This document shows, piece after piece, positions 8,161 to 54,414 of a DNA stretch of 64,000 nt. Positions within the stretch are counted from its first letter, which is position 1. Every line of letters starts with the position of its first letter. This DNA is from Octopus vulgaris. Lineage: Eukaryota. The notes under the pieces are model-generated. The model was not told where the DNA came from. It did not search any database and saw nothing but the letters and a program-made list of their open reading frames with translations. The stretch spans positions 496,001 through 560,000 of the forward strand of contig OX597833.1 of NCBI GenBank assembly GCA_951406725.2, given 5' to 3'. Made by a program: the position numbers and the translations under genes.

Positions 8161-8167
8161 TGGACAT
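8161..8167 (-). CDS. NIT2: NIT2 first coding exon (ATG TCC A)
   Basis: Minus strand reads gagaaatATGTCCA|gtatgt. Phase 1 joins exon 2 to give MSKLRLALIQL. Lies in unique sequence with several CpGs. Confidence 0.75.
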
Positions 8168-8431
8168 ATTTCTCGCGGGAAAACGTAAAAGCCGACCCGG
8201 CAGGAATTGCAGATAGAAAAACCAAAACAGACTGGAACGAATAATAGAATAGCAGAATTGCAGAGAGATTATGAAAACAAAAAAACGAACAATTAGGAAT
8301 AGCCGTTCTTCGTTTTTGATATTAATTTCATTAATAGGCGTCTCTAACGAATAGCGTCGGAAATTGCTTTGTGCTCCAAAAATTGTAATTATTTTTTTCA
8401 GATGTCTAAGTTTCGAAGATTACAAATATTT

Positions 8432-8856
8432 GGCGATCTTTCGTCTCTAGTAGACCTTTCCGTCGATTTCCGTAAAAAAATTTTTTTTTTTACATATGGG
8501 CTTGCGGGAACTTTTGAAGTAATATACATACATATACACATACACCGAGTAAAAAATTTCAGTTATCTCTTTCTTTCACACATTACTCTGTCTCTTCACA
8601 CACACTAACAGAAGCACTTCACTTACACAACATACTGTCCGTCTCCCACACCCCATCAAACACACACACACACACACATGTACATCAATGCTTTCCATGC
8701 ACGGTAACTTCAAAAGAACTTCCCTCGTCATACAATCGCTTTCTCTTAGTCTCTTTCGCTCTCATTACTTCAAAAGTTCCCGCAAGCCCATATGTAAAAA
8801 AAAAAATTTTTTTTAGAGAAATCGACGGAAACGTCTACTAGAGACGAAAGATTGCC
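8432..8856. mobile_element. Second copy of the same MITE, opposite orientation, about 270 bp upstream of the NIT2 ATG
   Basis: Same TIR of about 90 bp and same internal sequence as 23508-23933; TSD degenerate. Confidence 0.85.
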
Positions 8857-11186: not shown

Positions 11187-11288
11187 TATACCTACATGTA
11201 CAGATATATACATACATACATAGCTGTATGTATATGCAAGTTGTAATCTTTTTGAAAAATATTAAAAATGTCCATTTGTTCGACTTAC

Positions 11289-11407
11289 TTGGTTTCGTAG
11301 CCATCCTCCTCAAAAGATAATCTGTAGAGATTAGCAGTACTTTCTGTCTGGACTGTAAACCCTGCCACGCCCTCCCTCACCAAACTCTGAAAGTCACCCT
11401 CATTAAA
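11289..11407 (-). CDS. Candidate alternative NIT2 first coding exon (MATKP from ATG 11304; upstream in-frame ATG 11403 blocked by TGA 11377-11379)
   Basis: Perfect donor CAA|gtaagt, AGGATGG start context, phase 1 compatible with NIT2 exon 2 (MATKPK-LRLALIQL). Acceptor ttttgagttcag with a CTAAT branch-like motif at 11425-11429. Confidence 0.5.
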
Positions 11408-12674
11408 CTGAACTCAAAATGTTGATTAGTCACGTGGAATTGTAAATATTGTTCGTCTTCAGGATACAACAACAACAACAACAATGATAACGGTAATGAT
11501 AACAACACTGCCACCACCTCTGCCTCCTCCACCACCACAATGACGACAACAATAAGAAGAATAACAATAATAAGCATGAGTGGCTGTGTGGTAAGTAGCT
11601 TGCTAACCAACCACATGGTTCCCGGTTCAGTCCCACTGCGTGGCATCTTGGGCAAGTGTCTTCTGCTATAGCCCCGGGCCGACCAATGCCTTGAGTGGAT
11701 TTGGTAGACGGAAACTGAAAGAAGCCTGTCGTATATATATGTATATGTATATATATATGTATGTGTGTGTCTGTGTTTGTACCCCTAGCATTGCTTGACA
11801 ACCGATGCTGGTGTGTTTATGTCCCCGTCACTTAGCGGTTCGGCAAAAGAGACCGATAGAATAAGTACTGGGCTTACAAAGAATAAGTCCTGGGGTCGAT
11901 TTGCTCGACTAAAAGGCGGTGCTCCAGCATGGCCGCAGTCAAATGACTGAAACAAGTAAAGAGTAAAAGAGTATGATGACAACAACAACAAAGCCCTCGG
12001 CTAAGTTAAGAGCCTCTGTCTGGTCGTTTGAGCTGTTAGAAATAGCAGCCAAATCTACCTCTAATAGATATGCCCACAAATGTTATCACGAAAGGAAGAG
12101 TACTTAGAACTAATGATTTCCTGAAAGCGCCATATCTGGAAATGAGATGTGATGGTCACATTTGGATTTCCTTCAATCCTAGTTCTGCTCTAGGGGGGAC
12201 AAACCTGAGGCTGAACAACAGCAACAACCACAACAACATCAGCTAACATCAACAGCACCAATATCAATTATATTAACAGTTTCCAATTTAGGGCTTGAAA
12301 CCAATGGTAGCCTTAATACACGGAGAAAGAAATTTTATCCAACAATGGCCTTGGCTGGTTTCCGTGCCGGTGGCACGTTAAAAGCACCAACCGATCAGGG
12401 CCGATGTCAGACCCCCCTGGCACCTGTGCAGGTGGCACGTAAAAAGCACCCACTACACTCGCGGAGTGGTTGGCGTTAGGAAGGGCATCCAGCTGTAGAA
12501 ACACTGCCAGATCAGACTGGAGCCTGGTGCAGCCTTCTGGCTTCCCAGACCCCGGTCGAACTGTCCAACCTATGCTAGCAGGGAGAACGGACGTTAAACG
12601 ATGATGATGATGAATGCAGAGATGGGCACTCATTCTCATCATTCGACATTTGCATATATATATATATATTATTA

Positions 12675-17308: not shown

Positions 17309-17527
17309 TGTTTCTTTACTACCCACAAGGGGCCAAATACAGAGGGGACAAAGAAGGACAGACAAACGGATTAAGTCGATTACATCGACCCCAGTGCGTA
17401 ACTGGTACTTAATTTATCGACCCCGAAAGGATGAAAGGCAAAGTCGACCTCGGTGGAATTTGAACTCAGAACATAAAGAGAGATGAAATACGGCTACGCA
17501 ATTCGCCCGGCATGCTAACGTTTCTGC
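17309..17527 (-). mobile_element. SINE family B copy overlapping the MTERF4 stop codon
   Basis: tggcagaaacgttagca...gcctttcatcctttcggggtcgataaattaagtaccag (resembles the Meta-SINE core); 8-bp TSD catttatc at 17301-17308 and 17528-17535. Confidence 0.9.
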
Positions 17528-18657
17528 CATTTATCATCATCATCCTCATCATCGTCGTCGTCGTCATCATCCTCATCGTCGTCATCATCATCATCATCGT
17601 CATCATCACTATCATAACCCTCATCATCATCGTAGTCATCTTCAATTTCTTGTTGTAGCAATTTGCAAAATGTTTGGTAATCCTTCTTAGACATATTCCC
17701 AAATTTCTCTGCAAATTCTTTGTCAGACAAATCCAAAATCGTGTCAAGGCGAGGATTCAATTGTTTCTCTTCTTTGTGTTTGCTTTTCTTGAAGAAACCA
17801 GTTCTGTACACCCAAAGATGCCTGGTTCTGATATGATCCAAGGAATGATGAAAGAGATTTGAATATCTCATCTGTGGTTGTGTGATGCCCATTTCGGAAA
17901 AAACATAATTGAATTTCTTCCTAATCATCTCCCAGTCTTCGGTGAGAATGTGCGGAGACTTTCGGATAAATAAAATAACATCATCCATTTTAAACAGAGT
18001 CTGTAATTCCCTTGCTCTCTTCACCAACATATTTGGTTCAAAAGACACAATCTCAGGGTTATGAGTGATCATCTGCCTCAAGCTGTTATCAGAGATCTTC
18101 AACGTCCGTAAACTGTTAAATACGGTACTTAATTGATTAGGGTTCTGGCCAAGAATAAGGGGATAGTTGTGTAAAGTTTTCAACATTGGTTTGTTTTTGA
18201 TACCATAATCATTAAGTGTCTTAAGAACATTTTGCCAATTTTTTACAGGAATCTTCAGCAATTCCGGGTTGTCCCCTAAGAATTCTTTTATCTTGTCCAA
18301 TGGCATGTTGAGACCTTCAAGTATAGAGATGTAACTACAGATGGTTTTGTCAGGAACTGAGGCTATCATTTTATCAACGTGTGTTGCCTTTTCTTTAATA
18401 CTTACGACCAATTCGGACACATTGTAGGGGTGAGGTGCTTGGTTAACGATGTACCTTTTTGGTTGGCAGCAGATAAATGCAGGGACAAGTGGAAAGTTTG
18501 GACATGGTGGAAATAAGTTTACAGATTTAGTTCTAAACAGTGGACAGTGGTGGTAAGCATTTTGTTGCTTACATAATACTTGCCATAATGATTTAGAAAA
18601 GAGTACCCTGACATTTCTCCAGTCAAAGAGAGATTTTGGAAACATGTTAGGCAACAT
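17515..18657 (-). CDS. MTERF4: Mitochondrial transcription termination factor 4-like protein, 380 aa, single coding exon
   Basis: Long non-repetitive ORF with mTERF-like Leu/Pro repeats (NPELLK, YPLIL, NPEIV, SPHIL). C-terminal block KFNYVFSEMG...IRTRHLW...NPRLDTIL.LSDKEF plus an acidic tail, as in MTERF4. Acceptor ttcttttgcag at 18705-18706 implies an upstream non-coding exon. Confidence 0.85.
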   Translation of the reverse strand: MLPNMFPKSLFDWRNVRVLFSKSLWQVLCKQQNAYHHCPLFRTKSVNLFPPCPNFPLVPAFICCQPKRYIVNQAPHPYNVSELVVSIKEKATHVDKMIASVPDKTICSYISILEGLNMPLDKIKEFLGDNPELLKIPVKNWQNVLKTLNDYGIKNKPMLKTLHNYPLILGQNPNQLSTVFNSLRTLKISDNSLRQMITHNPEIVSFEPNMLVKRARELQTLFKMDDVILFIRKSPHILTEDWEMIRKKFNYVFSEMGITQPQMRYSNLFHHSLDHIRTRHLWVYRTGFFKKSKHKEEKQLNPRLDTILDLSDKEFAEKFGNMSKKDYQTFCKLLQQEIEDDYDDDEGYDSDDDDDDDDDDDEDDDDDDDDEDDDDKWQKR

Positions 18658-19150
18658 CTCCAGTCATACCATATTCTCAAGATTGTCAAGAATTTCGTAA
18701 ATACCTGCAAAAGAAAGAAAAAAATCATTATATTTTGAAAGAGCTATACTAACGATGTCTATAAATACACTCACCGGTTGTTGTTTGTTTACATTTCTTT
18801 CCTCTAAAAGCACTTGTTATTCATCTATATCTTCTCCGAAATATTTTTCTTTAGACATAGTATAGATGAGGGTTAACCAATATCTTGTGAGCGAAATCAG
18901 TACAAGGAAACTGAAGAAGCACAATGTGTATTTCTTCTATCACCATCATCATTTAACGTCTGCTTTCCATGCTGGCATGGGTTGGACAGTTTCACTGGAA
19001 CTGGGAAGCTGGAGAGATGCACCAGGTTCCAGTCTGATTTGGCTTGGTTTCTATGGCTGGATGCCCTTCCTGATGCAAACCACTCAAAGAGTGTAATGGG
19101 TGCTTTTTACGTGCCACTGGCATTTACATTTTTATATATATGTCTATATA

Positions 19151-22531: not shown

Positions 22532-23408
22532 GGGTACTATTAGCGAACGGTGGTCCCGGTGCGCGCACTCGCGCTAGCTAGTCGTAAGTAGTCGATCCTA
22601 CAACGACTTGCGCGTATATTTAATATTATATTATGTAATTTAGTCATTTATATCGTTTTTTTTTAAAGAGTAGGAAGGTTATGATGGGAATTTGGCTGCC
22701 ATTTCTAGCACGTCAACCACCCAAGCTGAGATGAAATTCGTCCCAGTTATATAGTTGGTTGGGTACTACTAGCGAACAGTGGTCCCGGTGCGCGCACTCG
22801 CGCTAGCTAGTCGTAAGTAGTCGATCCTACAACGACTTGCGCGTATTTTTGTATTTCAAGGCTGAATACATATCGAAGGAAATTAAATAATATTTTTCAA
22901 ACAAAGTAAATAATTTTTTAAACTAATTAAATAAATTATTTTTATAAACAAACTAAGGTCGGGATTAGGGTAAAAAAGTCGTTGTAGGATCGACTACTTA
23001 CGACTAGCTAGCGCGAGTGCGCGCACCGGGACCACTGTTCGCTAGTAGTACCCAACCAACAATATAACTGGGACGAATTTCAACTCAGCTTGAGTGGTTG
23101 ACGTGCTAGAAATGGCAGCCAAATACCCATTATAACCTTCCTACTCTTAAAAAAAAAACGATATAAATGACTAAATTACATAATATAATATTAAATATAC
23201 GCGCAAGTCGTTGTAGGATCGACTACTTACGACTAGCTAGCGCGAGTGCGCGCACCGGGACCACTGTTCGCTAGTAGTACCCGTCGTAAAGTATGTGAAT
23301 TAGGTTTAGGGTTAGGGTTAGAAAGTCGTTGTAGGATCGACTGCTTGCGACTAGCTAGCGCAGATGCGCGAGTGCGCGCACCTGGACCACTGTTCGCTAG
23401 TAGTACCC
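22532..23408. mobile_element. Composite foldback element built from five copies of a 78-bp TIR
   Basis: gggtactactagcgaacagtggtcccggtgcgcgcac... at 22532 (+), 22761 (+), and ending at 23053, 23282, 23408 (-). Flanked by the 14-bp direct repeat ttggtaaagtatgt. Confidence 0.8.
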
Positions 23409-23507: not shown

Positions 23508-23933
23508 GCGATCTTTCGTCTCTAGTAGACCTTTCCGTCGATTTCCGTAAAAATTTTTTTGTTTTTTTTACATATGGGCTTGCGGGAACTTTTGAAGTAA
23601 TGAGAGCGAAAGAGACTAAGAGAAAGCGATTGTATGATGAGGGAAGTTCTTTTGAAGTTACCGTGCATGGGAAGCATTGATGTACATGTGTGTGTGTGTG
23701 TGTTTGATGGGGTGTGGGAGACGGACAGTGTGGTGTGTAAGTGAAGTGCTTCTGTTAGTGTGTGTGAAGAGACAGAGGTAACTTCAAAAGAACTTCCCTC
23801 GTCATACAATCGCTTTCTCTTAGTCTCTTTCGCTCTCATTACTTCAAAAGTTCCCGCAAGCCCATATGTAAAAAAAAAAAAAAATTTTTTTACGGAAATC
23901 GACGGAAAGGTCTACTAGAGACGAAAGATTGCC
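23508..23933. mobile_element. MITE with long TIRs (GG...CC ends, 8-bp TSD; Merlin- or hAT-like)
   Basis: TIR ggcgatctttcgtctctagtagacc..., perfect TSD aagcatcc. Confidence 0.85.
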
Positions 23934-25082
23934 AAGCATCCTTCTTCACTCCAGGGTAACCCGGGAAAAAAAAACCTTCCCCAAATTTGCATTAAAACTA
24001 AATTTGTGAGTGTATACATTTAGTTAACACGAGGGATTACCGGTACATATACTAACCGTTTAAGAAGAATAAGGAATTAAGCTATTTCCCTAATTTTATA
24101 ATTAAAAGACAAAGATTCCCTACCGAAGTTTTTCAGTTTTCACATGAGGACGGTGTCGAGGTAAAGTTGTTCCCCCTTCGAATATTATTCCACCACAAAA
24201 ATGATTTCTTTAGATTTATCTCCCTTCTCGTATTACTAATAACGCGAGCCGAAGTTCACATGTTAGAGCGACGTGCAACATTCCTCACTGTATTTATTTA
24301 CTTATATCCTTTCATGTGGAGGTGCAATGGCCCAGTTGTTAGGGCAGCGGACTCGCGGTTGTAGTATCGCGGTTTCGATTCCCCGACTGGGCGTTGTGAG
24401 TGTTTATTGAGCGAAAACACCTAAAGCTCCACCGACAGGGGGTGGTGTCGATCCCTGCTGTACTCTTTCGACACAACTTTCTTTCACTCATTCTCCTGTT
24501 GGCCTGCTCGCTTAGCCAGCGGGGTGGCGTCATTTCAAGGCTAAAAGACAATGCGAAGCGCATTGTGACCAGCGATGTGTAGCAACATCTGACAGCCTGG
24601 TCGGTCACGTGATCACGTGATATCCTTTCATATTCTGGGATTCGTAAAACTGTTAATTATGTACGTAATTAACGTCGTTGAACTCCGGTACAAAACGGAA
24701 ATGATTTTTACAAATAGAACACCATTTTTACACAGGTGACTAAAATTAATTGGCATATCCACACAAGTGTGTCTCTACCTCGACTTTATTTCCTCATAAT
24801 TTTCAGAAAACGAATATTTTCGAAGGTAATCTGCTACATACACCTTTAAAATTGTATAGGTTGCGATTATATTGGAATTTAACACAAACGAAACGAAACG
24901 AAACGAAACGAAACAAAAAAGACTTGGTGGGCGCACACACATCACACATATTTTCAATTTTAAGTTACATTTCTTAAAGGGTTTTCTATTATAGCTGGGT
25001 CGTCTGTCAAATTCCCTCACAGTGCTTTGTGAGTGAATTTGGCAGAGGGAAACTGTGTAGTGCGCGCCTACATATCTACATA

Positions 25083-36724: not shown

Positions 36725-37620
36725 TCATGGAATCGATTCCATTGAGCTTTTCATGGCAAAGTTCGTTTGCGGCGTAAGAGTGTTATTCTTTTCTTTGGAG
36801 AACGAGCACCTTTTCAATTTCCCAAACCACCGACCGATTGCCGTCATTGGTCGGTCGTATGGTTCTAGCGAGTGCATCCACAGAGGCAGAAAGTCCCAGG
36901 TCCTCAGTTTTTCGGGTAGATAGCTGGGTAACTTTTTCTGAAGTATGTTCATGATAATCACGAATATAAGGACCAAACCGATCGGACCAAAAACACCAAC
37001 CCAAGCAGGCCATCCACCCAAGGACACGACAAACACAAGACCGGGTAACAACAAGAACATAGTGATGAGGTATACAATGGCAAACCAACGATATTTTGCT
37101 GTTGTATTGCCGAGAGATTTGCTCAAACCAATGGGGACTTTCCTCAAGTATGGAATCGGATACCAAATGAGGATGCCGCTTACGTTAAAGAACAGATGAC
37201 AGAACGCGATTCGCAGGGCCAGTTTTAGGCTTTCACCGGATGATGTCATGGCAGCCATAACAGCTGTGAACGTCGTCCCTATGTTTGCTCCCAGCGTCAG
37301 AGGATACATCCGTTTCAAGGAAATAACCCCAACGCCAACGAGCGGGGTGAGTGTGGAGGTGAAGATGGAACTACTTTGCACCAGAAACGTCAAGGCTGTA
37401 CCGACAAGAATCGCCAGGTAACCGGTTAGAAACCCAAACGGACTGGGTAGTTTGGCGTTGACCATTTTCTTTATAATTTTCGCCGTGTTGCCTTTCATTA
37501 CGGTATGGAGGATTTTTACAATTGATATTAAGCAGAAACAGAGCACGACCAGCGAAATTACAAGCAAGATCACGCCAATTAAGGTGTCGTTGAGGGAAGA
37601 GTTTGCAAATACGTGGTGAC
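36725..37620 (-). CDS. SLC34A2: SLC34 last coding exon
   Basis: ttttgcag acceptor, 896 nt to TGA. Contains [36 protein letters not shown] and [16 protein letters not shown]. The seven exons sum to 1911 nt in frame. Confidence 0.96.
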
Positions 37621-37832
37621 CTGCAAAATAGACAAATGAGTAAATTAATTAAATAGATAAATAAATAGGCGCAGGAGTGGCTGTGTGGTAAGTAGCTTGC
37701 TAACCAACCACATGGTTCCGGGTTCAGTCCCACTGCGTGGCATCTTGGGTAAGTGTCTTCTGCTATAGCCTCGGGCCGACCAATGCCTTGTGAGTGGATT
37801 TGGTAGACGGAAACTGAAAGAAGCCCGTCGTA

Positions 37833-37928
<96 letters not shown>

Positions 37929-39255
37929 ATTGTGTGTCTGTGTTTGTCCCCTAGCATTGCTGGTGTGTTTACGTCCCCGTCACTTAGCGGTTAGGCAAAA
38001 GAGACCGATAGAATAAGTACTGGGCTTACAAAGAATAAGTCCCGGGGTCGATTTGCTCGACTAAAGGCGGTGCTCCAGCATGGCCGCAGTCAAATGACTG
38101 AAACAAGTAAAAGAGTGAAAAGAGAGAGAGAGATAAATAAATAAATAATCACTGGTATTGCAACTTATATTTGTTGAGACGACTGTGGTTGACAATGTGC
38201 ACTTGCTACTGATGAAGCTCAACAAAGCAGAAATGCATGGATGACATTCTAACCACCGCTATTGGATGATTTTTGTCTGGTATTGATATATTTTGTGTTT
38301 TTGTGAAAATAGCATACTTAAGAGAAAATCTTACAGGCTATGATCATATAAGTCGTTGGATTGGCTAGCTGACTGACTTTCAACTCAGGCGGGAAGGTGG
38401 TGTTGATAAGCCACAAAAATGTCGAAACATCGTTGCCCATCACTCCCAAATAAGATTGAGGGTGAGTTATCTCACCTGTCCATGGCTCTAGGGTGTTTTA
38501 ACATCTTAGATCCACGTGAGTTATATACTCCGCTACGCCACTGCAGCCACCGGAAAATACACAAAGCATTTACATTAGTATATGTATTTAACAATATTTA
38601 TTATACTAGAATTGCTTTCACCTCATATGTAAATTCATGCATACATACATACATATATACATACATACACAATACATACATATATATATATATATATGTA
38701 TATATGTATATATATATACATATATATATATGTATGTATATGTATATATGTATGTATGTATGCATATATGTATGTAGATATATATATATATAAATAGATG
38801 AGTGTATTTTACCTTGTTAACAATTAACACGGATAAATGAATGAATAGTTACCAGGGCAGCAAAATCTCACAAGTAAAGATGTTGTAACTCCTTGTTTAT
38901 AAAGGTTGAAACTTCGTGTTTACGTTGAATATTTGAATAATAGGAATAAAAAATGGAGTCAACGCAGGTTTAAACAAGTATTTTTTCTTTCTACATATGT
39001 TTCAAAAATTCCACTGATACTTATTCAAAAGAATAAAAGGTATAAACAATGCAATCTTCTCTTCGGCAAAGTGAAAAAACGAAACTTGTCAATACGACAT
39101 TTTAGCAAAAAATGATGGATTCGTATAGCGATAGACAGAACGCTATTAATATTGTTTAAAAAAACGTTATATGATATAACGTCATAAGTAGCTAACAGAA
39201 AGAGTAGGGATATTAATAGTGAATGTTAAATATAAAGGAAATTAAAGTCTAGAGA

Positions 39256-40047
39256 CTACTTATATGCACTAAAAGTATGCTTTTGCCAATGCTTACATCT
39301 GTATGCTCGTTCTATAACCGTGTTTACTAGAGTATTTTTAGAAAAAATAATGAAAAATAGCTCAGAATTGCAGAGAAGACAGAATTTCTTGCCTTTGTCA
39401 TATGGTATCGAAATTGAGAGGATCAACCATTCCAAATGAAATTGTTCATTGTGGTCTTTTAAATTCCAAATCAGTTTGCTGAGACCGGTACTATTCCGTT
39501 TATTTCTATCTCTAAATGTTGAGTAATGGATAGAAATTCTCTTAGATAACTCTAACGATGTGCTTCCAATGTAAAATCGTACTTTATTACGAGTACTGAT
39601 TATACACTGGTATATAGAATTTTTAATCTTAGAGTTACTTGACATAAATTTAATTCTATTGGGATTGACTTCAGATACAATAACCTTGCTATTAATATTT
39701 CTAGAGGGTTGGATGGTAGTAGCTAAATTAATGTTAGTATTAGTAAATGTCTTAATATTTAACAGTTTGTTATTATGAGAAGATATAATTTGCAAGAGAT
39801 TTTTTGTGTTTGAAAAACCTATCCTAACCTTATGTGAATTAATTATAGAGTAATATCTAGAATTATTTGGAAAATTCCTAGCAATAGCTTGACGAAACAG
39901 CAGTGGGAGATTAGATTTAATTTGTCTCCCGTAAGGAATTATTAACCAAATATTTTTACTAGTATTCATAGCGTAATTACTTTTGAAGGTGTTATATTTA
40001 CTTTTAGATCGGTAATAGGGGAATAAATAAGGGTTATCTGCCTTCAT
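39256..40047 (-). pseudogene. Inverted copy of Penelope linker plus GIY-YIG ORF (YIG intact)
   Basis: 263-aa ORF identical to the C-terminal part of the plus-strand ORF except one G/R difference. Confidence 0.85.
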
Positions 40048-40201
40048 TCGCTTTGTATCGGTGCATTCTTTTTGAAATGGCTGAAGAGTTCCCTAACATT
40101 TATGGAGGTCTATATCGTGATGATTGTTTACTTTACCTCCAAAATGTTTCTAACCAAAAGGTACAAAAGTTAAGAACAGTTTAGTTAATTTTTTCAGTAG
40201 A

Positions 40202-41383
40202 ATGGGCTTAAAAATCGTTTTTGATGACGATCTGACGAAGGCCAACTTTTTAGATATTACCCTTAATTTACACAGTGACTCTTACTTCCCATATCATAAA
40301 CCGTTGACCAATCTTAAGTACATTAGCAAATTTAGTAATCATCCTGGAGCAATTACTAAGAATTTAGTTAAGAATATTTCATTTAGATTATCTAAATTAT
40401 CTGCTAATGTTGATATTTTCAATAATAACGCTGAATTCTATAACTCTGCCTTAATCAAAGCAGGTTATACAGAAAAAATTTTCTACATTGATTCTGCTCA
40501 GTCTAATTGTAAATTCAATAATGTAGATAAGATTTCTAGTCGTAAAAGAATTATTGATAACAAACATAACTTACGCACCGATACAAAGCGAATGAAGGCA
40601 GATAACCCTTATTTATTCCCCTATTACCGATCTAAAAGTAAATATAACACCTTCAAAAGTAATTACGCTATGAATACTAGTAAAAATATTTGGTTAATAA
40701 TTCCTTACGGGAGACAAATTAAATCTAATCTCCCACTGCTGTTTCGTCAAGCTATTGCTAGGAATTTTCCAAATAATTCTAGATATTACTCTATAATTAA
40801 TTCACATAAGGTTAGGATAGGTTTTTCAAACACAAAAAATCTCTTGCAAATTATATCTTCTCATAATAACAAACTGTTAAATATTAAGACATTTACTAAT
40901 ACTAACATTAATTTAGCTACTACCATCCAACCCTCTAGAAATATTAATAGCAAGGTTATTGTATCTGAAGTCAATCCCAATAGAATTAAATTTATGTCAA
41001 GTAACTCTAAGATTAAAAATTCTATATACCAGTGTATAATCAGTACTCGTAATAAAGTACGATTTTACATTAGAAGCACATCGTTAGAGTTATCTAAGAG
41101 AATTTCTATCCATTACTCAACATTTAGAGATAGAAATAAACGGAATAGTACCGGTCTCAGCAAACTGATTTGGAATTTAAAAGACCACAATGAACAATTT
41201 CATTTGGAATGGTTGATCCTCTCAATTTCGATACCATATGACAAAGGCAAGAAATTCTGTCTTCTCTGCAATTCTGAGCTATTTTTCATTATTTTTTCTA
41301 AAAATACTCTAGTAAACACGGTTATAGAACGAGCATACAGATGTAAGCATTGGCAAAAGCATACTTTTAGTGCATATAAGTAG
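40202..41383 (+). pseudogene. Truncated Penelope RT C-terminus plus GIY-YIG ORF (YIG mutated to YIR)
   Basis: 393-aa ORF separated from the YRDD segment by a frameshift. Confidence 0.85.
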
Positions 41384-41694
41384 TCTCTAGACTTTAATTT
41401 CCTTTATATTTAACATTCACTATTAATATCCCTACTCTTTCTGTTAGCTACTTATGACGTTATATCATATAACGTTTTTTTAAACAATATTAATAGCGTT
41501 CTGTCTATCGCTATACGAATCCATCATTTTTTGCTAAAATGTCGTATTGACAAGTTTCGTTTTTTCACTTTGCCGAAGAGAAGATTGCATTGTTTATACC
41601 ATTTATTCTTTTGAATAAGTATCAGTGGAATTTTTGAAACATATGTAGAAAGAAAAAATACTTGTTTAAACCTGCGTTGACTCCATTTTTTATT

Positions 41695-41751
<57 letters not shown>

Positions 41752-41939
41752 GGGAGTGTATTGCCCAGTTTGCATACATCATATTGACACGGAAGGGCAT
41801 TGGTCGGTGCGGGGGTTATAGTAGAAGACATTTGCCCAAGATGCCACCCAACGGGACGGAACTCGAAGCCACCAGTTTCTATATCGAGCTTTTTAACCAC
41901 ACGGCAATGCCTCTGTCATTATACATACATGCACACACA

Positions 41940-41979
<40 letters not shown>

Positions 41980-42000
41980 TGTATATATGTATGTATGTAT

Positions 42001-42171
42001 ATGGTGGTGGTTGTGGTGGTGGAGATGATGATGATGACAATGATGATAGTACTGATGATGATGAGGGTGACGACGATGAACATAATAATAGTGGTGGTGA
42101 TGATCATGATGACGACGACGACAACGACGATGATCATAATGATGATGATGGTGATGATGGTGATGATGATG

Positions 42172-42221
<50 letters not shown>

Positions 42222-42422
42222 AGTGATACTGCTGGAGCTACTGCTGCTGCTGCTGGGGCTGTTGGTGGCGATAATGGTGGTAGTGATGGTGGTGGTGGTG
42301 GTGGTGGACATGATGATGATGATGATGATGGTGACGCCGTCGGACCCAGCGCCGCCGACGACAACGTCGATGATGGTAGTGGTGGTGATGATGACAATGA
42401 TGATGACGACGATGACGCCTAC
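42001..42422. repeat. (GAT/GGT)n low-complexity tract
   Basis: Direct reading. Confidence 0.9.
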
Positions 42423-42520
42423 GATTATTCAAGCGGTGACAGTTGTTGACATTACTTATGGCGAATGACCCAACAATGAGATAAAAAAAACCCATCAAAT
42501 TGCTTTCGTTTTTTCCTTAC

Positions 42521-42649
42521 ATTTCTTCCAGTCTTTCGTAAGGTTTCCTATAATTTGTTTTTCTGTACTTGTTGCATTGACACCAAGCTCTGTATTTATT
42601 GAACATTCACCCATCGACATGTTATGAGCATCTAGCAACTGAGATGGAT
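42521..42649 (-). CDS. SLC34A2: SLC34 exon (glycosylated extracellular loop)
   Basis: 129 nt, ttccag/gtaagg, phase 1-1, open frame with NMS, NAT and NLT sequons; ends KK(C) and joins CHHVF of the last exon. Confidence 0.85.
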
Positions 42650-42882
42650 CTGGAATAGGAACGAGTACATATATATTTAATCATGCTTGTAGACGACATA
42701 CAAGGGGACTATTACACATGTTTAAGGACAGCTGCATATTGTATATAGCAAAACATATCTGTTTTGTTGTGTCTAGGGAGGGTCATTACGCCAATATTAA
42801 TAACACACGCACTGGTTCAGATCCACTCCTTTATTATAAAAATAATAATACAAATTATAAAAATAATAGAAAAAAGATCCAA

Positions 42883-43673
42883 TACTGTACTATTTCTGCT
42901 TCGCGGATTTTCACATATCGCGGGGCGTTTTGGAACGTAACACACGCGATAATCGAGGGATTACTGTAGATAAACCGGCCATATCTGGTCCAAATAATCT
43001 ACCCCTTTTGTGTTCGAGCTAGCCTTGTCCAGCTTAGTCAAGTGGTTAAATATCCAACTAGTTAACCATTCGATCGTTTGTTTAACTTTTTTTTTGCCAT
43101 ATTTTTTTTTGCCATATTTTTTTTGCCGCCATTTGCAACTTTCTCGGTGACTTCTCTCCCAGTTCGTTACGGGATTGATTGCTAATTACCAACAAATTAA
43201 ACAAACAACCGATTAGTTAGTTGGACATTTAATCAATTGATTAATAATTAAAGAGTGGAATCGAACCGGTGCGTGCGTTATTAATATTAGCGTAATGATC
43301 CTCCATAGACGTAACCAAAATTTGTTTCAACACACGAATTCACATAAAGAATCTTGCAAACCAGATACAAAAAAATAAGTAGGAACATGTCTGTGCATTA
43401 AATATATTTAACCCTTTCGTACAGTATTGTGGTTCACCTATCGCAGTTTATTATTTAAGTTTAAGTCGATTCCTCCGTGGTATTTTGCATTTATAATAAA
43501 ATAAATATATACAAATTCAGTACAGTACTGTTTCTACTTCGCGGATTTTCACATATCGCGGGGCGTTTTGGAGCGTAACACACGCGATAATCGAGGGATT
43601 ATTGTAGTTAAACCGGCTATATCTGGTCTAAATAATCTACCCCTTTTGTGTTCGAACTAGCCTTGTCCAGCTT
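42883..43673. repeat. Direct duplication of about 150 bp (42883-43035 and 43522-43673) including a Tigger-like terminus
   Basis: ttcgcggattttcacatatcgcgggg...cgcgataatcgagggatta.tg|TA plus shared flank. Confidence 0.7.
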
Positions 43674-43820
43674 CTTACCCCTACTCTACAATGTTATTAT
43701 AAAATGAAACAATTACAACATTGAAATCTCAAAGCTATGAGATAATGCGTGATTATTTCAAAACAATAAGAATAAACAAGCGTTTTATTTGATAGAGAAA
43801 TCTGAATACAAAACGGTTAT

Positions 43821-43959
<139 letters not shown>

Positions 43960-44074
43960 ATAGTAATGCAATACGAAAGTATTGCTTTCCAGTAAAAGAT
44001 AGCCCGTAAGGGTAAAATTATACATAAAAGTAAATAAATGGTACAACGAAGTACCGATATTTACTGGAAAACTG

Positions 44075-44218
<144 letters not shown>

Positions 44219-44273
44219 ACCATCCATCCATCCATCCATCCATCCATCCATCCATCCATCCATCTATCCATCC

Positions 44274-44341
<68 letters not shown>

Positions 44342-44401
44342 GCATTATAAAAATATTTACATTAAAGAATGATAATTTAAAAGACAAATATATATACTTA
44401 C

Positions 44402-44516
44402 CGGGAGTGAAAAAGCCATGGCTTCCATTAACCGGAAGTGTCTTCTCACACCATCTTTTTACTAGACTTTCCACATCATCGCCATTTGCAATTTTCTTTA
44501 AACACTCCGAGTCCAG
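44402..44516 (-). CDS. SLC34A2: SLC34 exon (extracellular loop, first Cys)
   Basis: 115 nt, ttgtag/gtaagt; [25 protein letters not shown] matches the LD...IA.GD...SL.K.WC pattern. Confidence 0.9.
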
Positions 44517-45789
44517 CTACAAGGAATCGAGAAAACATTGAATAAACTCCCAGTACTTTTTTTAATGTAAAGAACATACTGTTTTACTTTTTTATGTCTT
44601 AGTGGCACCAAGGCCCTGATCTTAATACCTTTTCTTTTTCAAATATCCTGTTTCTAAAATTACATTATGCAGTACTAGCAGTATCGCCCGGCGTTGCTCG
44701 GGTTTGTAAGGGAAATAACTGTATAAGCATTTTTTAGAGAGTTACTTCCCTTATATAAAACCGAGTAAAAAATGCATTAAAAAAGCGAAAAAATTATACT
44801 CTTTCTCTTTTTACTCTTTTTACTTGTTTCAGTCATTTGACTGCGGCCATGCTGGAGCACCGCCCTTAGTCGAGCAAATCGACCCCGGGACTTATTCTTT
44901 TGTAAGCCCAGTACTTATTCTATCGGTCTCTTTTGCCGAACCGCTAAGTGACGGGGACGTAAACACACCAGCATCGGTTGTCAAGCAATGCTAGGGGGAC
45001 AAACACAGACACACAAACATATTCACACACACTTATATATATATACACACACCACCATCGGTTGTCAAGCGATGTTGGGGGGGATAAACACAAACACACA
45101 AAGATATACACACGTACATATATACGACAGGCTTCTTTCAGTTTCCGTCTACCAAATCCACTCACAAGGCATTGGTCGGCCCGGGGCTATAGCAGAAGAC
45201 ACTTGCCCAAGATGCCACGCAGTGGGACTGAACCCGGAACCATGTGGTTGGTTAGCAAGCTACTTACCAAACAGCCACTCCTGCGCCTATGGTAAATTAC
45301 CTTATGGTAAATTTTTTTTTAAATCGTAGACTCATCGTAGAATATAAGTGTGCTGCATGTGAAAAAAAGGTTGCGGAGCAATGGTATTAAGCCAACCTCG
45401 AGTAAAGTATTCCGCTATCAAGTCTCTTTTATGTGGCATATCAGAAGGTCTAAAAGAATGAAAGAATGAGAGTGTGGGTAGATGAGGAAGCTGGGTGAGA
45501 AGATAATATGTGGGTGGCTGAGTGTGACTGGGTGGCTACACTCACTCAACCATGCGACCACCCACCCTGGTTGTGTGAACGGGTAGGTGAGTGATTGGGC
45601 CGAGTGAGTGAATGATTGAGCGGAAGAATATATATGGGTGTATGACAGATGACTAGTTAGGTGGACAGGTACACAGGTGAATGAAGGAATGCGTGAGTGA
45701 GTGGACGGGTGGACGGGTGGAGGGGAGAGTGGAAGTGTCGCTCAGCGGGACGGGGTGGGGGTGGGGTGGTTAGGTAGGTTCCTTGGTGT

Positions 45790-46582
45790 TTAACAACGAC
45801 GATGGTAAGGATGACAACGATGGTGGTGATGTTGACGACAACGACGATGATGAAAACTGACGATGACGATGACGACAATGGCGATAATGGCGATGATGAC
45901 AACAACGGTAGCAATAATGGCGACAACGACAAAGATGACGATGACAACGACGGTGATGATGACGAAAACGACAAAATTTGATGATGACGATGATGACAAC
46001 AATAACGATGATGACGATGGCGACGACGACGATGGCGATGATGAAAACAACACCGACGATGATGGCGATGATAACAACGATGGCGATAATGGCGACAACC
46101 ACAAAAATGACGACGACATGATGACGATGATGACGACGACGATGATGATGACGACAATGACGATGATGGCGATGACAATGACGACGACGACGACGACGAT
46201 GATGACAACAACGATGGCGATAATGGCGACAACAACAAAGATGACGACGACACGATGATGATGATGACGACGAAGGCGACGATGACAACCACGGCGATGT
46301 TGACGAAAACGACAAAATTTGATGACGATGATGACGAAAACGACGGCGATGATGACAACGGCAAAGATGACGATGACAACGACAAAATTTGAAGATGACG
46401 ATGACAACGATGACGATGATGAAAACAACGATGGCGATAATGACGATAACGACAAAGATGACGACGACACGATGACGATGATGACAACGGGGAAAAGATG
46501 ACGATGACAACGACGGCGATGATGACGACAACGATAAAAATGATGACAAAAATGATGACGACAACGCTGACGATGACAACAA
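45790..46582. repeat. Degenerate (GAY/AAC)n trinucleotide array in SLC34 intron
   Basis: Direct reading; recurring acgacaaaatttga and atggcgataatggcga subunits. Confidence 0.95.
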
Positions 46583-46627
46583 GAAATGGGAAGTGAGTAT
46601 TGTATTTTTTCTGGAGAACGACCTTAC

Positions 46628-46935
46628 CTCAATGATAAGATCAGTGAACGGCCGAGTGATCACCTGCAGCAGTTCAATACGATCGAATTTCGTGTTACCT
46701 GAGATGCCATCCATAATGGCACCCGTAAGTCGGTAGAGGTAACCGCTGGCGGCCTCCAACGGCAACAAGATTAGCACCGTTAACCAGTTGAACATATCCA
46801 AGATAGTGGCGGCGGCGAATGCTCGGCGGAACTCGTTCCGGTTGCCTGCTTGAGCTAAAGAAACGATGGTGTTTGTGATTGAGGTCCCGATATTGGCGCC
46901 CATCACTAGCGGTATCGTTGCTTTGACGCTGATAA
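46628..46935 (-). CDS. SLC34A2: SLC34 exon with GANIGTS motif
   Basis: 308 nt, ttccag/gtaagg; IPLVMGANIGTSITNTIVS...FRRAFAAATILDMFNWL...FTDLIIE. Confidence 0.95.
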
Positions 46936-48465
46936 CTGGAAATATAAAGTAAAACCTATAATTAAAACAATCAGATCGAAACATCGTATAAGTGTAAATA
47001 CTGGTTGTAAATTTTGGCACAAGGCCAGCAATTTCTGGTGGGGAGGGGGTGCAAGTCGTGCAAGTCGATTACATTGAACCCAGTGCTCAACTGGTACTTA
47101 TTTTATCGACCCAGAAATGTTAAAAGGCAAAACTGACCTCGGCTGAATTTGAACTCAGAACGTAAAGACGGACCAAATAATAATTTCTTTACTACCCACA
47201 AGGGGCTAAACACAGAGAGGACAAACAAGAACATACAAACGGATTAAGTCGATTATATCGACCCCAGTGCGTAACTGGTACTTAATTTATCGACCCCGAA
47301 AGGATGAAAGACATAGTCGACCTCGGCTGAATTTGAACTCAGAACGTAAAGACGGACCAAATAATAATTTCTTTACTACCCACAAGGGGCTAAACACAGA
47401 GAGGAGCCAAACAAGGACAGACAAACGGATTAAGTCGATTAGATTGACCTCAGTGCGAAACTGGTACTTTATTTATCGACCCCGAAAGGATGAAAGGCAA
47501 AGTCGCTCTCGGCGGAATTTGAACTCAGAACGTAGCGGTAGACGAAATACCGCCAAAGCTTCTGGCTGGTGAGGATCGAACCACAATTCACCTACTTTCA
47601 ATCCAGATTTCCTCCCAGCCCTCGCCCCTCAAACTTCGTCTATCTTTTTTCTGCATCGTCTTTCACGTCTTCCTAACCTTCTTTCAGTCCCATCTCACTA
47701 CATTTGCCTTCAAGATGATTGACACTTGCGTCCACTTTGCCATACATTCAACACTTATTAAACTCGGTGGCTTCTGTCAATTTTTGTTTTAACAACATTT
47801 GTTCTAATCGCTTGTTCTTGCGCAGTCATGATAAGGGTCGCGATTTCTGTTTACAGTTTTACAACCATCTCTCAGTCAAACTCATAACTCCTCTCCTTCC
47901 TATGTCCTCCCTTTACAAACTGACAAACTGCCCATGTAACACTCTTTTTCCCGTCCTCTTTTCAATCGTTTCCCTTCTTTTGTTTATAATCCTTTATTCT
48001 AAGTGCTTAACATTGATCTCCCTGCTTGTTCTTATAAAGCCTCATCGCTTCTCCTAATGCACTTCCCTACCTTTATAATTGCCAAGTACACTGGGACGAT
48101 ACACGGTACATTACGTGACCCCTCAATTTCACATTTTTCTCGAGTCCCTGAACCACAGATTCCTTCGTTTTCTCGGGCTATTAACGCACCAAATTCTTAA
48201 TGCACAAGTTCTTCTACGTAGCCAGTGCCGCCCCAAAGGCATGTCGAAGAGGGAGTTAGGAGTTAGGAGGAGGTGAAGGGGCGGCAAGGTAACATAATTA
48301 ACATATCAAATTTTACCTATAATAGTTATTATATTATACAATGCATGTATATATACATACATGCACACACACATATACATCAATTCATACATACATACAT
48401 CAATATACATCAATTCATTCATACATACATACATAATACATACATAATACATACATACATACATA

Positions 48466-48520
<55 letters not shown>

Positions 48521-48593
48521 GAAATGAGGTACTCAGAAATTCTGAGTACCTCATTTCTTCTAATATAAATTACTTGTACACCATCTCCAAACC

Positions 48594-48650
<57 letters not shown>

Positions 48651-48866
48651 TCATCATCATCATCATCGTTTAACGCCCGTTTTCCGCGCTAGCACGGGTT
48701 ATATATATATATACAGACACATACATACATGCATTATGTGTGTGTGTATGATAAAGATAAGTAATAAACAAGCTGGTACAGTTCTGTATTTAAGAGATGA
48801 GGAATTATGTACATTATTTACATTATTTACATTTGATGGATATTTGTCCTCATCTTGTTTGTTGTT

Positions 48867-48913
48867 AACATAACGTTTCGGCTGATATACCCTCCAGCCT
48901 TCATCAGGTATCT
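48867..48913 (-). ncRNA. Hammerhead motif (family A)
   Basis: GATAC-CTGATGA-A-GGCTG-GAGGGTATAT-CAGCC-GAAA-CG-TT-ATGTT. Confidence 0.65.
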
Positions 48914-48959
48914 TGGGGAAATTTTGAACTTGGCTTCTCATTCCTAAGGTATTTTTCGA

Positions 48960-49032
<73 letters not shown>

Positions 49033-49039
49033 GTTATTA

Positions 49040-49382
49040 TTTTCTTCTTTCTTCAAATTTTCTTCCGTTTCTCGCCGAGTGTTTTCCGTACACCTAGGGC
49101 AGAGAAGCTCATTGTATGCATTCCCAGATTACACGCGCAAATTCACAGATAAAATATGTATATAAAAATTGATAAATAAATAAATTCATGAATGGATGTT
49201 ATTTTCACAGCGATAATGTTCTTCTCAGTACATGAGCCGTTCCAGTTAATACGATTTTTTGCACTTCCTGTAGGGATGGTAAGCCTGTTATCATTTTCAA
49301 ATAGGTTTCAGTACCTTTTTTTTTTTTATCATTCCTAGAGATCCTACAATCACTGGTACTGTAGTTGCCTTGAGATGCCACA

Positions 49383-49384
<2 letters not shown>
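49040..49384 (-). mobile_element. R4/Dong-like non-LTR retrotransposon 3' end inserted in a (TAA)n tract
   Basis: Minus-strand translation WHLKATTVPVIVGSLG...LQEVQKIVLTGTAHVLRRTLSL* is typical of the C-terminus of restriction-like-endonuclease elements; (ATT)n lies on both sides. Confidence 0.7.
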
Positions 49385-49449
<65 letters not shown>

Positions 49450-49574
49450 GGTGTTTGTTTCTATTCTCTACGCTCTGAGTTCAAACCTCGCTATGTTTTT
49501 TGTGGGTCATAGACTTAATCCGTTTTTATTGTACATATATGTACGTGTATCTCTGTCAGTCTGTCTGTCTCTCG

Positions 49575-49609
<35 letters not shown>

Positions 49610-49621
49610 CACATACACACA

Positions 49622-49661
<40 letters not shown>

Positions 49662-49821
49662 TTATGAAACAAAATTTTTATATAAATTCTGCATACACTA
49701 ACGGATTTCCACATGTATATCCAGTAAGAGAAGAAATCCCGCTGTATGATGGCCTATGGTAGCCGATAACCGTATAGGAGCTTTGAAGTGCATATTATGA
49801 AGTTATTAACCAGATGGTGAT

Positions 49822-49857
<36 letters not shown>

Positions 49858-49890
49858 CTTCATACACACACACATATGTATGTATATGTA

Positions 49891-49953
<63 letters not shown>

Positions 49954-50095
49954 ACATACAGTTATATCTTACATAGTTTTGATAAATCCATTTAGTATGC
50001 GGAGTGTGTTTGTGGTGTTGTTGGTGTTGGAATTGGTTGGTGGGGGTGGGGGCGTTGAATATGAATTAATAAAAACAAAAAAAATTGTTACCTAC

Positions 50096-50239
50096 TTTTT
50101 GATGCCACCATGGATACCATGATCGACGTGGAGGTAGATGAGCTTTGTACCAATACTGTGAATAAAACACCGATCATTAATCCGGCAACTGGATTCGATA
50201 CAATTTCACTTTGACTGATCGCTTTTCCGGCACCTTTTC
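50096..50239 (-). CDS. SLC34A2: SLC34 exon with first QSSS motif
   Basis: 144 nt, KGAGK...[33 protein letters not shown]; phases consistent with neighbouring exons. Confidence 0.95.
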
Positions 50240-50439
50240 CTGTAAGACAAATGGAGAAGATAGCAATAATTACTACGGACCTGTTAGAAATAACTGCCAA
50301 AATAACAATATCAAATCCTCTCTCTCTCTCTTCATTTTTTCCGTTTTGCATTTTCTGATGAATGTAAAAATTCCGAAACGTCAATTAAACTTATGAAATC
50401 ATCCTACGAATACCTTAAATGTATATACACTTGACATAC

Positions 50440-50568
50440 CTCCTATTAAACGGAATGCTGAGCTGAGGAAATCCAGGGAACAAACGAATAGATAGAAGAA
50501 ACCTGTAAGGAGAATGACTTTGCCGATGGCGGTGAAGACTCGCAGACATTTCTCCTTGGAATCGAGTT
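50440..50568 (-). CDS. SLC34A2: SLC34 exon
   Basis: AG/GT bounded, 129 nt, LDSKEKCLRV...YLFVCSLDFLSSAFRLIG(G). Confidence 0.93.
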
Positions 50569-50983
50569 CTGTAAATAGAGAAAAATAATTTGTTAATAGA
50601 CAGAAATATGCGTCTATGTTTGCAATGGAGGTGCGTATCTGTGTGTGTGTGTGCGTAAACATGTATGTATGTATGTATGTATGTATGTATGTATGTATGT
50701 ATGTATGTATGTATGTATGTATGTATGTATGTATGTATGTATGAATGTATGTATGTTTGTATGTTATGTATGTATGTGTGTATGAATGTATGTTTGTATG
50801 TATGTTATGTATGTATGTATGTATGGTATGATATGGTATGTATGTATGTATGGTATGTATGTACATGGATATGTGTGTGTGTTATGTACGAATGTGTGAG
50901 TATGAATGTATGTATAAAAGTGTGTATATATATACATATATACGCATGCATATATATATATATATGTGTGTGTGTGTATTAAT

Positions 50984-51052
<69 letters not shown>

Positions 51053-51231
51053 CGACGGGCTTCTTTCAGTTTCCGCCTACCAAATCCACTCACAAGGCAT
51101 TGGTCGGCCCGGGGCTATAGCAGAAGACAATTGCCTAAGATGCCACGCAGTGGGACTGAACCCGGAACCATGTGGTTGGTAAACAAGCTACTTACCGCAC
51201 AGCCACATATATGTCTTCCCAATAGCAACAT

Positions 51232-51885
51232 ATGGATGCGAGTCCTGGACACTAAAGAAAGCTGACCAGAAGAGAATTAATGCATTCGAGCTTTGGTGTC
51301 GGTAAGACTTCTACGGATTCCATAGACAGCGAGGCTCACAAATGGAGAAGTTCTTAAGCAGATCCAACCGAAAATGTCGCTAGAAGCTAGGATCACCAAG
51401 CATAGATTGGCATATTTCGGTCATGTTATTCGGAGAAAATCCCTGGAGAAGGACATCATGCTCGGAATGGTAAGTGGCAAGAGAGGAAGAGGCCGACCAA
51501 GAACCCGCTGGCTTGACACCATCAAGAGTGATACCTATTTCTTTATTACCCACAAGGGGCTAAACATAGAGAGAACAAACAAGAACAGACATAGGTGTTA
51601 AGTCGATTACATTGACCCCAGTGCGTAACTGGTACTTAATTTATCGACCCCGAAAGGATGAAAGGCAAAGTCGACCTCGGCGGAATTTGAACTCACAACG
51701 TAACGGCAGACGAAATACCGCTAAACATTTCGCCCGACGTGCTAACGTTTCTGCCAGCTCGCCGGTATCAAGAGTGATACCGGAATGGACATAGCCAGTC
51801 TGAAAGAAGCGGCCCAGGATAGAACTGACTGGAAGACACTGATCCAACGAGTAACCGAGAGTCGACTTCGACTGAGCGGATAAAT
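51232..51885 (+). mobile_element. RTE/BovB-like LINE 3' fragment interrupted by a SINE
   Basis: [10 protein letters not shown]...AFELW...YFGHVIRR.SLEKDIMLG...RGRPRTRWLD. The SINE is flanked by the 15-bp duplication atcaagagtgatacc (51521-51535 and 51767-51781). Confidence 0.85.
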
Positions 51886-51959
51886 TGATAGATACATATA
51901 TACATTTGCATATGCACACATCCTGCACACACGTTTACGCACATACTACATAAGTGAGT

Positions 51960-52014
<55 letters not shown>

Positions 52015-52170
52015 TGTGCCCAGGTCGGAGCAATCTCAAGATTAATCAGCCGAAATTGCGAAGATGATCCGGTTCTTGGCTGAAGATTGAAGGCTTCGAA
52101 TGTCCCGTCCGTGTTTTTTGTGTCGTCTTCTAATGTTTCACGTTCTTGTCCCAGTTTGTATATTTTTTTC

Positions 52171-52215
<45 letters not shown>

Positions 52216-52646
52216 ATATTATGGCCGGGGTATACGTGTGTGTGTATGTGTGTTGTGTGCGCGTGTAAATATCCAAGAAAGCGGAAGGTTGTCTTTATCT
52301 CGCATATAAAACAAACTGTTACATGAGTATAAGATTTCAGTGCGGAAAAGTCAACCGTTCAGATCAAACATTTTCGTCTGATGTTTATTCCAAGAAATAT
52401 CCTCGGGTTGTAATTCCAAGTAACAGAACGCTGTAAACTGACCTATATCGAACACACATTGAATATTTGTCCGATCTCCATATTGATTTTTCCTCCACTT
52501 TGTTCGTAGTTTCATCGTGTGCCATCTTGCTTATATGCACTACACTGTCTGTACTATACGTCTGTGTGTCCCCCTTTCTCTTTCTGTACTACACATGCAC
52601 GCATGCGCACACACACATACATATGTATGTATATATATTTGTACTG

Positions 52647-53030
52647 TGGAGGCGCAATGGCCCAGTGGTTAGGACAGCGGACTCGCGGTCGTAGGATCAT
52701 GGTTTCGATTCCCAGACCGGGCGTTGTGAGTGTTTATTGAGCGAAAACACCTAAAAGCTCCACGAGGCTCCGACAGGGGATGGTGGTGATCCCTGCTGTA
52801 CTCTTTCACCACAACTTTCTCTCACTCTTACTTCCTGTTTCTGTTGTACCTGTATTTCAAAGGGCCGGCCTTGTCACTCTCTGTGTCACGCTGAATATCC
52901 CCGAGAACTACGTTAAGGGTACACGTGTCTGTGGAGTGCTCAGTCATTTACACGTTAATTTCACGAGCAGGCTGTTCCGTTGATCGGATCAACCGGAACC
53001 CTCGTCGTCGGAACCGACGGAGTGCTTCCA
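52647..53030 (+). mobile_element. tRNA-derived SINE family C; related heads at 5790-5937 (-), 24317-24620 (+), 55150 (+)
   Basis: TGGCCCAGTGG A box, GTTTCGATTCC B box; 3' part shared with 9780-9940 (-). Confidence 0.8.
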
Positions 53031-53661
53031 TCCATATTTGTATATATATATGTATACATGCATACACACACACATATATATATATATGTATATATCTATA
53101 TAACTTACTTGGAAAAGGATGCGTGGCGTTCGATCATATAATAATATAAATAACATATAAATATATGCATATATACATACATATATGTACATACCTACAT
53201 CTATATGTATATATACATGCATATATGTGTACAGGACATAAAAATAAAAACGTTGAATACTATGAGAAACGAAAATACAAAAAACAAAAACATGGAAACT
53301 AACTTTTTTCAAACAACGAGAAAACAGAGTACAAGACATACAACACAAGGAATATTCTCCTTCTTCAGTTGTCCCTGTTTCGTCTACTCCGTGTTACGAA
53401 GGTAAGGACAAGACGCGACTTCCTTGAAACAATCCTTCCCGCAAAGCAAATTAAATAAAATTTGGAATTTTTTGCGGAGGGGTGAAAGTGGTAACAAGAA
53501 CAGGACAGTAAGAACAAAACAAGACAGTAAAACCAGTAAGGTTTTGGTCGGCCCGAGGCTATAGTAGAAGACACTTGCCCAAGGTGCCACGCAGTGGGAC
53601 TGAATCTGGAATTATATGGTTCGTAAGCAAGCTACTTATCACACAGCCACTCCTACGCCTA

Positions 53662-53701
<40 letters not shown>

Positions 53702-53887
53702 AAAGTTTACGAAAATAAACAAAAGATGAAGTCTGGTGGAGTACAAACAAACAAATGTATTAGTATAGCGCTCAGGAATAGAAAAAGTCTTTTACGTTTC
53801 GAGCCTACGCTCTTCGACAGAAAGATACACAGAAAAGAAACAAGGAGAGAAAAATGCGTGTAGGAGCTAACGATCTATCATGGCGTC

Positions 53888-54022
<135 letters not shown>

Positions 54023-54224
54023 TCAAAACCCCACCTCATCTCACACAAACATATGTATGGGTATATAAAATGAAATTCGGGATCAGTATGTGGGGCTCAC
54101 CTTTACGTTGACCCTATCTTGTTTACTTTGGCGATTTTTAGTGTAATACTTTATAAAGGAATAGAGTCCAGCTCAACGTAGCTTTGTGATATATAGAAGG
54201 AAAGAACTCCAAATTTCTTCTCAC

Positions 54225-54414
54225 CTGACCATTTTGGAGAATCGTCCACTAAGTCGGGTGTGTTCCAGGGATCATCTTCCACACTTGTATCTGCCACAGA
54301 GTCCCGGTGATTTTCATTATTTCCGATATGACTGTTGGTGGTGTGGTTGTTGTCCACAACAACCGGATGGCTGTGTGTCACGTTATTGGAATCACGTAAT
54401 AGCTTGAAACGTCC
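54225..54414 (-). CDS. SLC34A2: SLC34 (NaPi-II) Na+/phosphate cotransporter, first identified coding exon
   Basis: ctttag acceptor, gtgaga donor, 190 nt; GRFKLLRD...EDDPWNTPDLVDDSPKWS(E) carries the DPW...KWSE N-terminal motif of SLC34. The symbol denotes SLC34A2-like; paralog identity cannot be resolved. Confidence 0.85.

Follow-up and report, generated by a model that had tools for sequence, protein, structure and literature searches.

The window analysed here is a stretch of 64,000 nucleotides of the Octopus vulgaris genome (contig OX597833.1 of assembly GCA_951406725.2), and the feature under study lies on its minus strand in NIT2, the gene of omega-amidase. The exons found in the window match Octopus NIT2 proteins. 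Exon 2, at 1429–1544 with the acceptor TCTCAG before 1544, is common to two first exons, of which one (exon 1b) occupies 11289–11413 and a second candidate (exon 1a) ends at 8161; the gene continues past the left edge of the window, where L002 and L003 carry its later exons. The translations of exon 2 and of the later exons agree with the NIT2 protein named O. vulgaris, and a genome search with the exon-1b stretch found a single match. The same strand carries an mTERF-family gene upstream of NIT2, a single long exon at 17515–18663 that matches PF02536 with 70.2 bits and encodes a C-terminal tail that is long and acidic. A sodium-phosphate cotransporter gene, also on the minus strand, has its exons within 36725–54400, and PF02690 is matched by the last of them with 46.9 bits. 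Two near-identical tandem ORF copies of 278 and 409 codons are found on the plus strand at 39256–41383, and we take them for the putative terminal portion of a Penelope-type retroelement, its tail being GIY-YIG-like.

The first NIT2 intron holds a tandem array at 2258–2687, composed of 3.8 copies of a 113-bp unit with 91% matches, and in the region 22540–23370 a CG-rich unit of about 60–240 bp recurs in nested copies of both orientations, beside CCCTAA-like words. A MITE-like element of 411 bp with terminal inverted repeats of ~85 bp is present at 8440–8850, just upstream of exon 1a, and again at about 23520–23935, ~1.2 kb upstream of a CpG-rich stretch near 22300. All 40 copies scored, out of 1,532 genome candidates, were full-length at 96–100% and so the element would belong to a young, large family.

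Contigs from 4 of the 24 listed runs were compared with the window over 11225–11570. These runs (X1 and X4 of organism A, X7 of organism B, and X12 of organism C) represent four studies and three organisms, with organisms D and E outside the comparison. The run-type labels were guessed, and X1, X7, and X12 were counted as RNA since their contigs lack precisely the 9.7-kb intron, from end to end, a pattern that is best read as spliced RNA. The original prediction, made from the sequence alone, had proposed an alternative NIT2 exon at this position, and the contigs of three of the four runs, one from each organism, indeed join 11289 to exon 2 at 1544. By-eye comparison of the loose contig ends at 11289 with 30 letters of exon 2 gave 29 matching letters for X1 and 28 each for X7 and X12; the X12 contig stops after 30 letters of exon 2, as would be expected at a branch, and the X4 contig (depth 5) covers 11340–11458 and stops short of the junction. 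The predicted donor GTAAGT is present at 11288–11283 and is used in X1, X7, and X12. The GT–AG sites of exon 1b thus join the shared exon 2 in three of the four runs, and the phase-1 join yields MATKPK-LRLALIQ, which places the exon-1b Met in frame with a full carbon-nitrogen hydrolase (209.5 bits for P0001 against PF00795). Exon 1b is genuine: it is spliced into octopus NIT2 transcripts as an alternative first exon. The internal acceptors after the TGA (tttacag and ctacag) that had been put forward as an alternative are read through by the three spliced contigs. A donor-like GTGAGG at 11380–11375, which overlaps the TGA and would join in phase to an acceptor-like site at 8232, ahead of exon 1a, was rejected for now because the contigs read through it and organism B alters its +5 G.

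The X1 and X7 contigs cover 11289–11413 without a loose 5′ end, and the coincidence of these ends in two runs of two studies is a weak hint of a transcription start at 11413. X4 and X12 place the 5′ end of the exon at 11458 or beyond: both extend to that position, the edge of masked repeats, with 88 and 139 further letters unplaced, respectively. Several words on the minus strand near 11413, within 11406–11450, resemble promoter motifs, namely, an initiator-like TCAGTT at 11411–11406, an E-box CACGTG at 11436–11431, and an AT-rich, TATA-like word near 11448.

The minus-strand translation of 11289–11403 is exactly the one given in the original prediction. It runs from an upstream ATG (11403–11401) to an in-frame TGA (11379–11377, its A being 11377), and then to a second ATG (11304–11302), which is the NIT2 start. 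The exon can therefore be divided into an upstream ORF (uORF) of 8 codons plus TGA (11377–11403), a segment of 5′ UTR from the uORF stop to the NIT2 start (11305–11376), and a coding part that specifies MATKP and the first base of the Lys codon (11289–11304). Both the AUG and the stop of the uORF precede the NIT2 ATG on the spliced molecule in X1, X7, and X12, which fits the uORF that had been listed as an alternative to a targeting peptide. The upstream ATG, located 10 nt from the 11413 end in two runs, stands in a weak context with T at −3 and A at +4, and the NIT2 ATG at 11304 stands in a strong one with A at −3 and G at +4.

The uORF shares the NIT2 frame in organisms A and B and is out of frame in organism C. 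The X12 contig of organism C, at a mean word depth of 431, differs from the window by 8 substitutions in 170 bases, five of which are listed by place and three not, and by two indels: 2 nt are missing at 11326, and 6 nt are inserted behind 11373. Its upstream ATG consequently lies 103 nt before the NIT2 ATG (mod 3 = 1), and stops occur in the NIT2 frame at 9, 32, 34, 35, and 44 codons upstream of Met, that is, 5 in 52 codons, for all three deletion placements tried. The O. vulgaris window has a single stop, the TGA, in the 51 codons upstream of Met. Two of the six Arg codons are changed in organism C and one is gained. Conservation of the frame, on which the original prediction had staked its validity, is thus broken by indels, as read from one contig of one run for organism C and from three organisms in all. 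Because the upstream frame is out of register in organism C, editing or readthrough could not make a fusion there, though the exon is kept and expressed.

The composition that had suggested a mitochondrial presequence was recovered as described, with 6 Arg, 7 Arg plus Lys, and 1 acidic residue in 33 codons. When criteria chosen after the peptide was seen (net charge of at least +6, at most one acidic residue, and at most one stop) were applied to dinucleotide shuffles of the 96 nt, 352 of 20,000 passed; the charge pattern also recurred in 61 of the 1,280 ATG-started frames of the window with at most one stop. The composition is therefore only mildly presequence-like beyond chance. An amphipathic helix beyond what composition gives was not detected by the hydrophobic moment, a crude measure, which was equaled by 3,097 of 5,000 residue shuffles. 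If the TGA is read as Trp, the first 30 residues of the restored peptide contain 5 Arg plus Lys and 1 acidic residue with a moment of 0.51, scores that equal those of the N terminus of the mTERF-family protein of the window, a likely presequence (5, 1, and 0.54). The RR-Met at the end of the restored peptide resembles the R-x-Met seen in the extensions of some NIT2 proteins from other animals. In the transcripts, a frame open from the upstream ATG into the enzyme was not found, owing to the stop in all four runs and the loss of register in organism C.

The product of exon 1b is already known from two related octopuses, O. sinensis and O. bimaculoides, for which RefSeq annotates isoform X1 (278 aa, MATKPK; proteins P0001 and P0024) beside isoform X2 (275 aa, MSK). 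O. vulgaris is represented in the cluster by one protein, CAI9737139.1, of the MSK type, and exon 1b is absent from the O. vulgaris proteins of the collection. The MSK isoform of 275 aa is attributable to exon 1a, whose coding part at 8161–8167 (minus strand) specifies MS plus one base before the donor GTATGT, the join giving MSK-LRLALIQ (proteins P0021–P0023); the X2 proteins of the database and the branch-like end of the X12 contig would be compatible with the use of exon 1a. In a tree of 28 proteins, the 16 from cephalopods group together as a single clade (support 99/96), and long and short N termini meet the same core at the same junction among P0001, P0004, P0021–P0029, and P0141–P0146. 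Such pairs are MATKPK/MSK in two Octopus species, MASEPGKK/MTSK in two core types of a cluster with a named cuttlefish protein, and MAVTTSKK/MASK in a third cephalopod group, with a core identity of 99–100% within each pair. Of the seven long-form cephalopod proteins, six begin at the Met of the long N terminus, and P0146 has eight additional residues with no Arg. Two NIT2 first exons are probably present coleoid-wide, as judged from proteins. Apart from MA and the terminal lysines, the long N-terminal peptides have little in common, so that conservation more likely concerns a second promoter than a signal; the two first exons probably serve promoter choice rather than supply a particular peptide. 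The small addition made here is that the pair of first exons seems to have persisted in octopus and in cephalopods of the cuttlefish side, a hint that the second promoter is old.

The surroundings of the two first exons differ in CpG content: the observed/expected ratio is 1.78 for exon 1a (8161–8440), 0.56 for exon 1b (11289–11570), and 0.84 for the window. This contrast is as expected for a housekeeping start accompanied by a second, regulated start. The frame before the exon-1a Met (8168–8230, minus strand) is open, has no ATG, and starts at CTG; the last 21 codons before the Met include 3 Arg and no acidic residue, reach 0.72 in hydrophobic moment, and terminate in R-N-Met. This CTG-started frame could be a non-AUG presequence, and its position is that of the extension in other animals, but the T-rich DNA explains its openness, and the Argonauta NIT2 model has an unrelated extension that is acidic and Thr-rich.

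It is highly probable, in our judgment, that exon 1b is a spliced NIT2 first exon giving MATKPK and that the ATG-to-TGA segment is a likely unconstrained uORF of 8 codons, not a hidden targeting peptide. Transcription of exon 1b would begin at a separate start that lies upstream of exon 1a. In the scanning model of initiation, ribosomes mostly skip a weak, cap-near AUG and can re-initiate after a short uORF. Applied to the leader of exon 1b, where the upstream AUG is weak and cap-near, the model predicts that most ribosomes pass the upstream ATG, or re-initiate after the uORF, and start at 11304, and the main product would be an omega-amidase of 278 aa that lacks a cleavable presequence and exceeds the exon-1a form by three residues. 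The uORF might instead be a selected translational damper of the exon-1b transcript, in favor of which both its ATG and its TGA are retained in all three organisms. We nevertheless think this improbable because, at 8 substitutions in 170 bases, six given bases are estimated to stay unchanged by chance well over half the time, and because the context is weak and the leader, in two runs, measures only 10 nt. Another history, that exon 1b once coded for an open mitochondrial presequence, that a nonsense change occurred in an Octopus ancestor, and that organism C decayed further, would account for the single stop in 51 codons and for the RR-Met end, and Arg/Lys-rich extensions do precede the NIT2 Met in other animals, e.g., P0014, P0019, and P0020. 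The extension of those animals, however, precedes the ancestral MS/MA start, whose counterpart is exon 1a, and five long-form proteins of the cuttlefish side and the third group lack anything of the kind, four starting at Met and one having eight uncharged residues. Given also that the composition arises by chance in about 2–5% of comparable frames, a decayed presequence is very unlikely.

The TGA itself is genuine. An assembly error or a private nonsense allele, both of which had been raised earlier, has a vanishingly small probability in view of its presence in all four runs, from four studies and three organisms; a further run, X17, which is possibly the assembly's own sample, also holds all 23 sampled words of the stretch. 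The central proposal of the original prediction was that ADAR editing of UGA to UGI, read as Trp, or readthrough in some tissue switches on a 33-residue presequence and thereby a mitochondrial NIT2. The frame, its phase, and its composition are as that proposal described them, UGAG was the best-edited UGAN context in a directed-editing assay (PMC5137428), and UAG-to-UGG stop-loss edits are allowed for in coleoid editome work (PMC8382921). In mammals, the glutamine transaminase-omega-amidase pathway is reported in the cytosol and mitochondria (PMC10452834), and human NIT2 is reported to be distributed throughout the cell (PMC12864753), although both sources concern mammals and not the sorting of octopus NIT2; the accessible section of PMC5485471 contains nothing on targeting. 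The transcripts nonetheless argue against the switch. All four runs cover 11377 and keep the TGA, and none has T>C on the plus strand; the absence of A>G at this position from all four contig sets rules out majority editing in these four runs; low-level editing would escape contigs, which drop minority variants. The frame is destroyed in organism C, and the 3′ neighbor of the TGA, which is G in organisms A and C (UGAG), is C in organism B (UGAC), a poorer context in the same assay. The 5′ neighbor G is disfavored by ADARs (PMC9638939), the upstream ATG has a weak context, and the leader shows no local fold at the site (139 of 200 shuffles fold as well; z 0.51). The best distant duplex partner of the site in the pre-mRNA reaches −43.1 kcal/mol, a borderline result, as 1 of 20 shuffled queries was better, ranking it second of 21. 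A protein search with the 40-codon frame in which the TGA was taken as Trp returned one candidate and none at E ≤ 10, which is weak evidence against the switch. One supplementary file of PMC8382921 gave no match to NIT2, although the editing-site tables may be in others, and a literature search on NIT2 and octopus returned nothing beyond work on human transaminases. We thus consider the editing or readthrough switch scarcely credible. Its narrower form, in which a minority of exon-1b transcripts in nervous tissue of the lineage of organisms A and B would be edited or read through to add the 33-residue presequence and shift the enzyme from the cytosol to mitochondria, deserves just as little credence. 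Were it true, it would represent an editing-gated change of protein location via a leader stop codon, of which a limited look through the literature, itself not proof of absence, yielded no case. As found, the feature matters little: an exon already modeled in O. sinensis and O. bimaculoides is confirmed, and an appealing hypothesis of editing falls away.

The nearest counterparts of exon 1b among known systems are the NIT2 isoforms X1 of O. sinensis (XP_029647751.1) and O. bimaculoides (XP_014781850.1), which have the same MATKPK N terminus and the same join to exon 2; they are database gene models. The leader resembles the general class of leaders with AUG uORFs (PMC7889888) in having an upstream AUG, a short frame, and a stop before the main start, and it differs from the general case in that, in two of the three organisms, the NIT2 uORF and the main ORF are by chance in the same frame. 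The dual-targeted glutamine transaminases GTK/KYAT1 and GTL/KYAT3, which belong to the same pathway, have isoforms that differ at the N terminus by an optional presequence (PMC10452834). Their presequence frame is open, while the upstream frame of NIT2 is closed by a stop and not conserved, and the real octopus NIT2 isoforms differ by three residues. In A-to-I stop-loss editing, considered for coleoid ORFs as UAG-to-UGG changes (PMC8382921) and reported for Fusarium (PMC13684032), a single event turns the stop into Trp, as it would at the NIT2 TGA. The octopus site is set apart from those systems by its UGA with a 5′ G, by its position in a leader, by an edit that was not seen in the four runs, and by the lack of a conserved frame across it.
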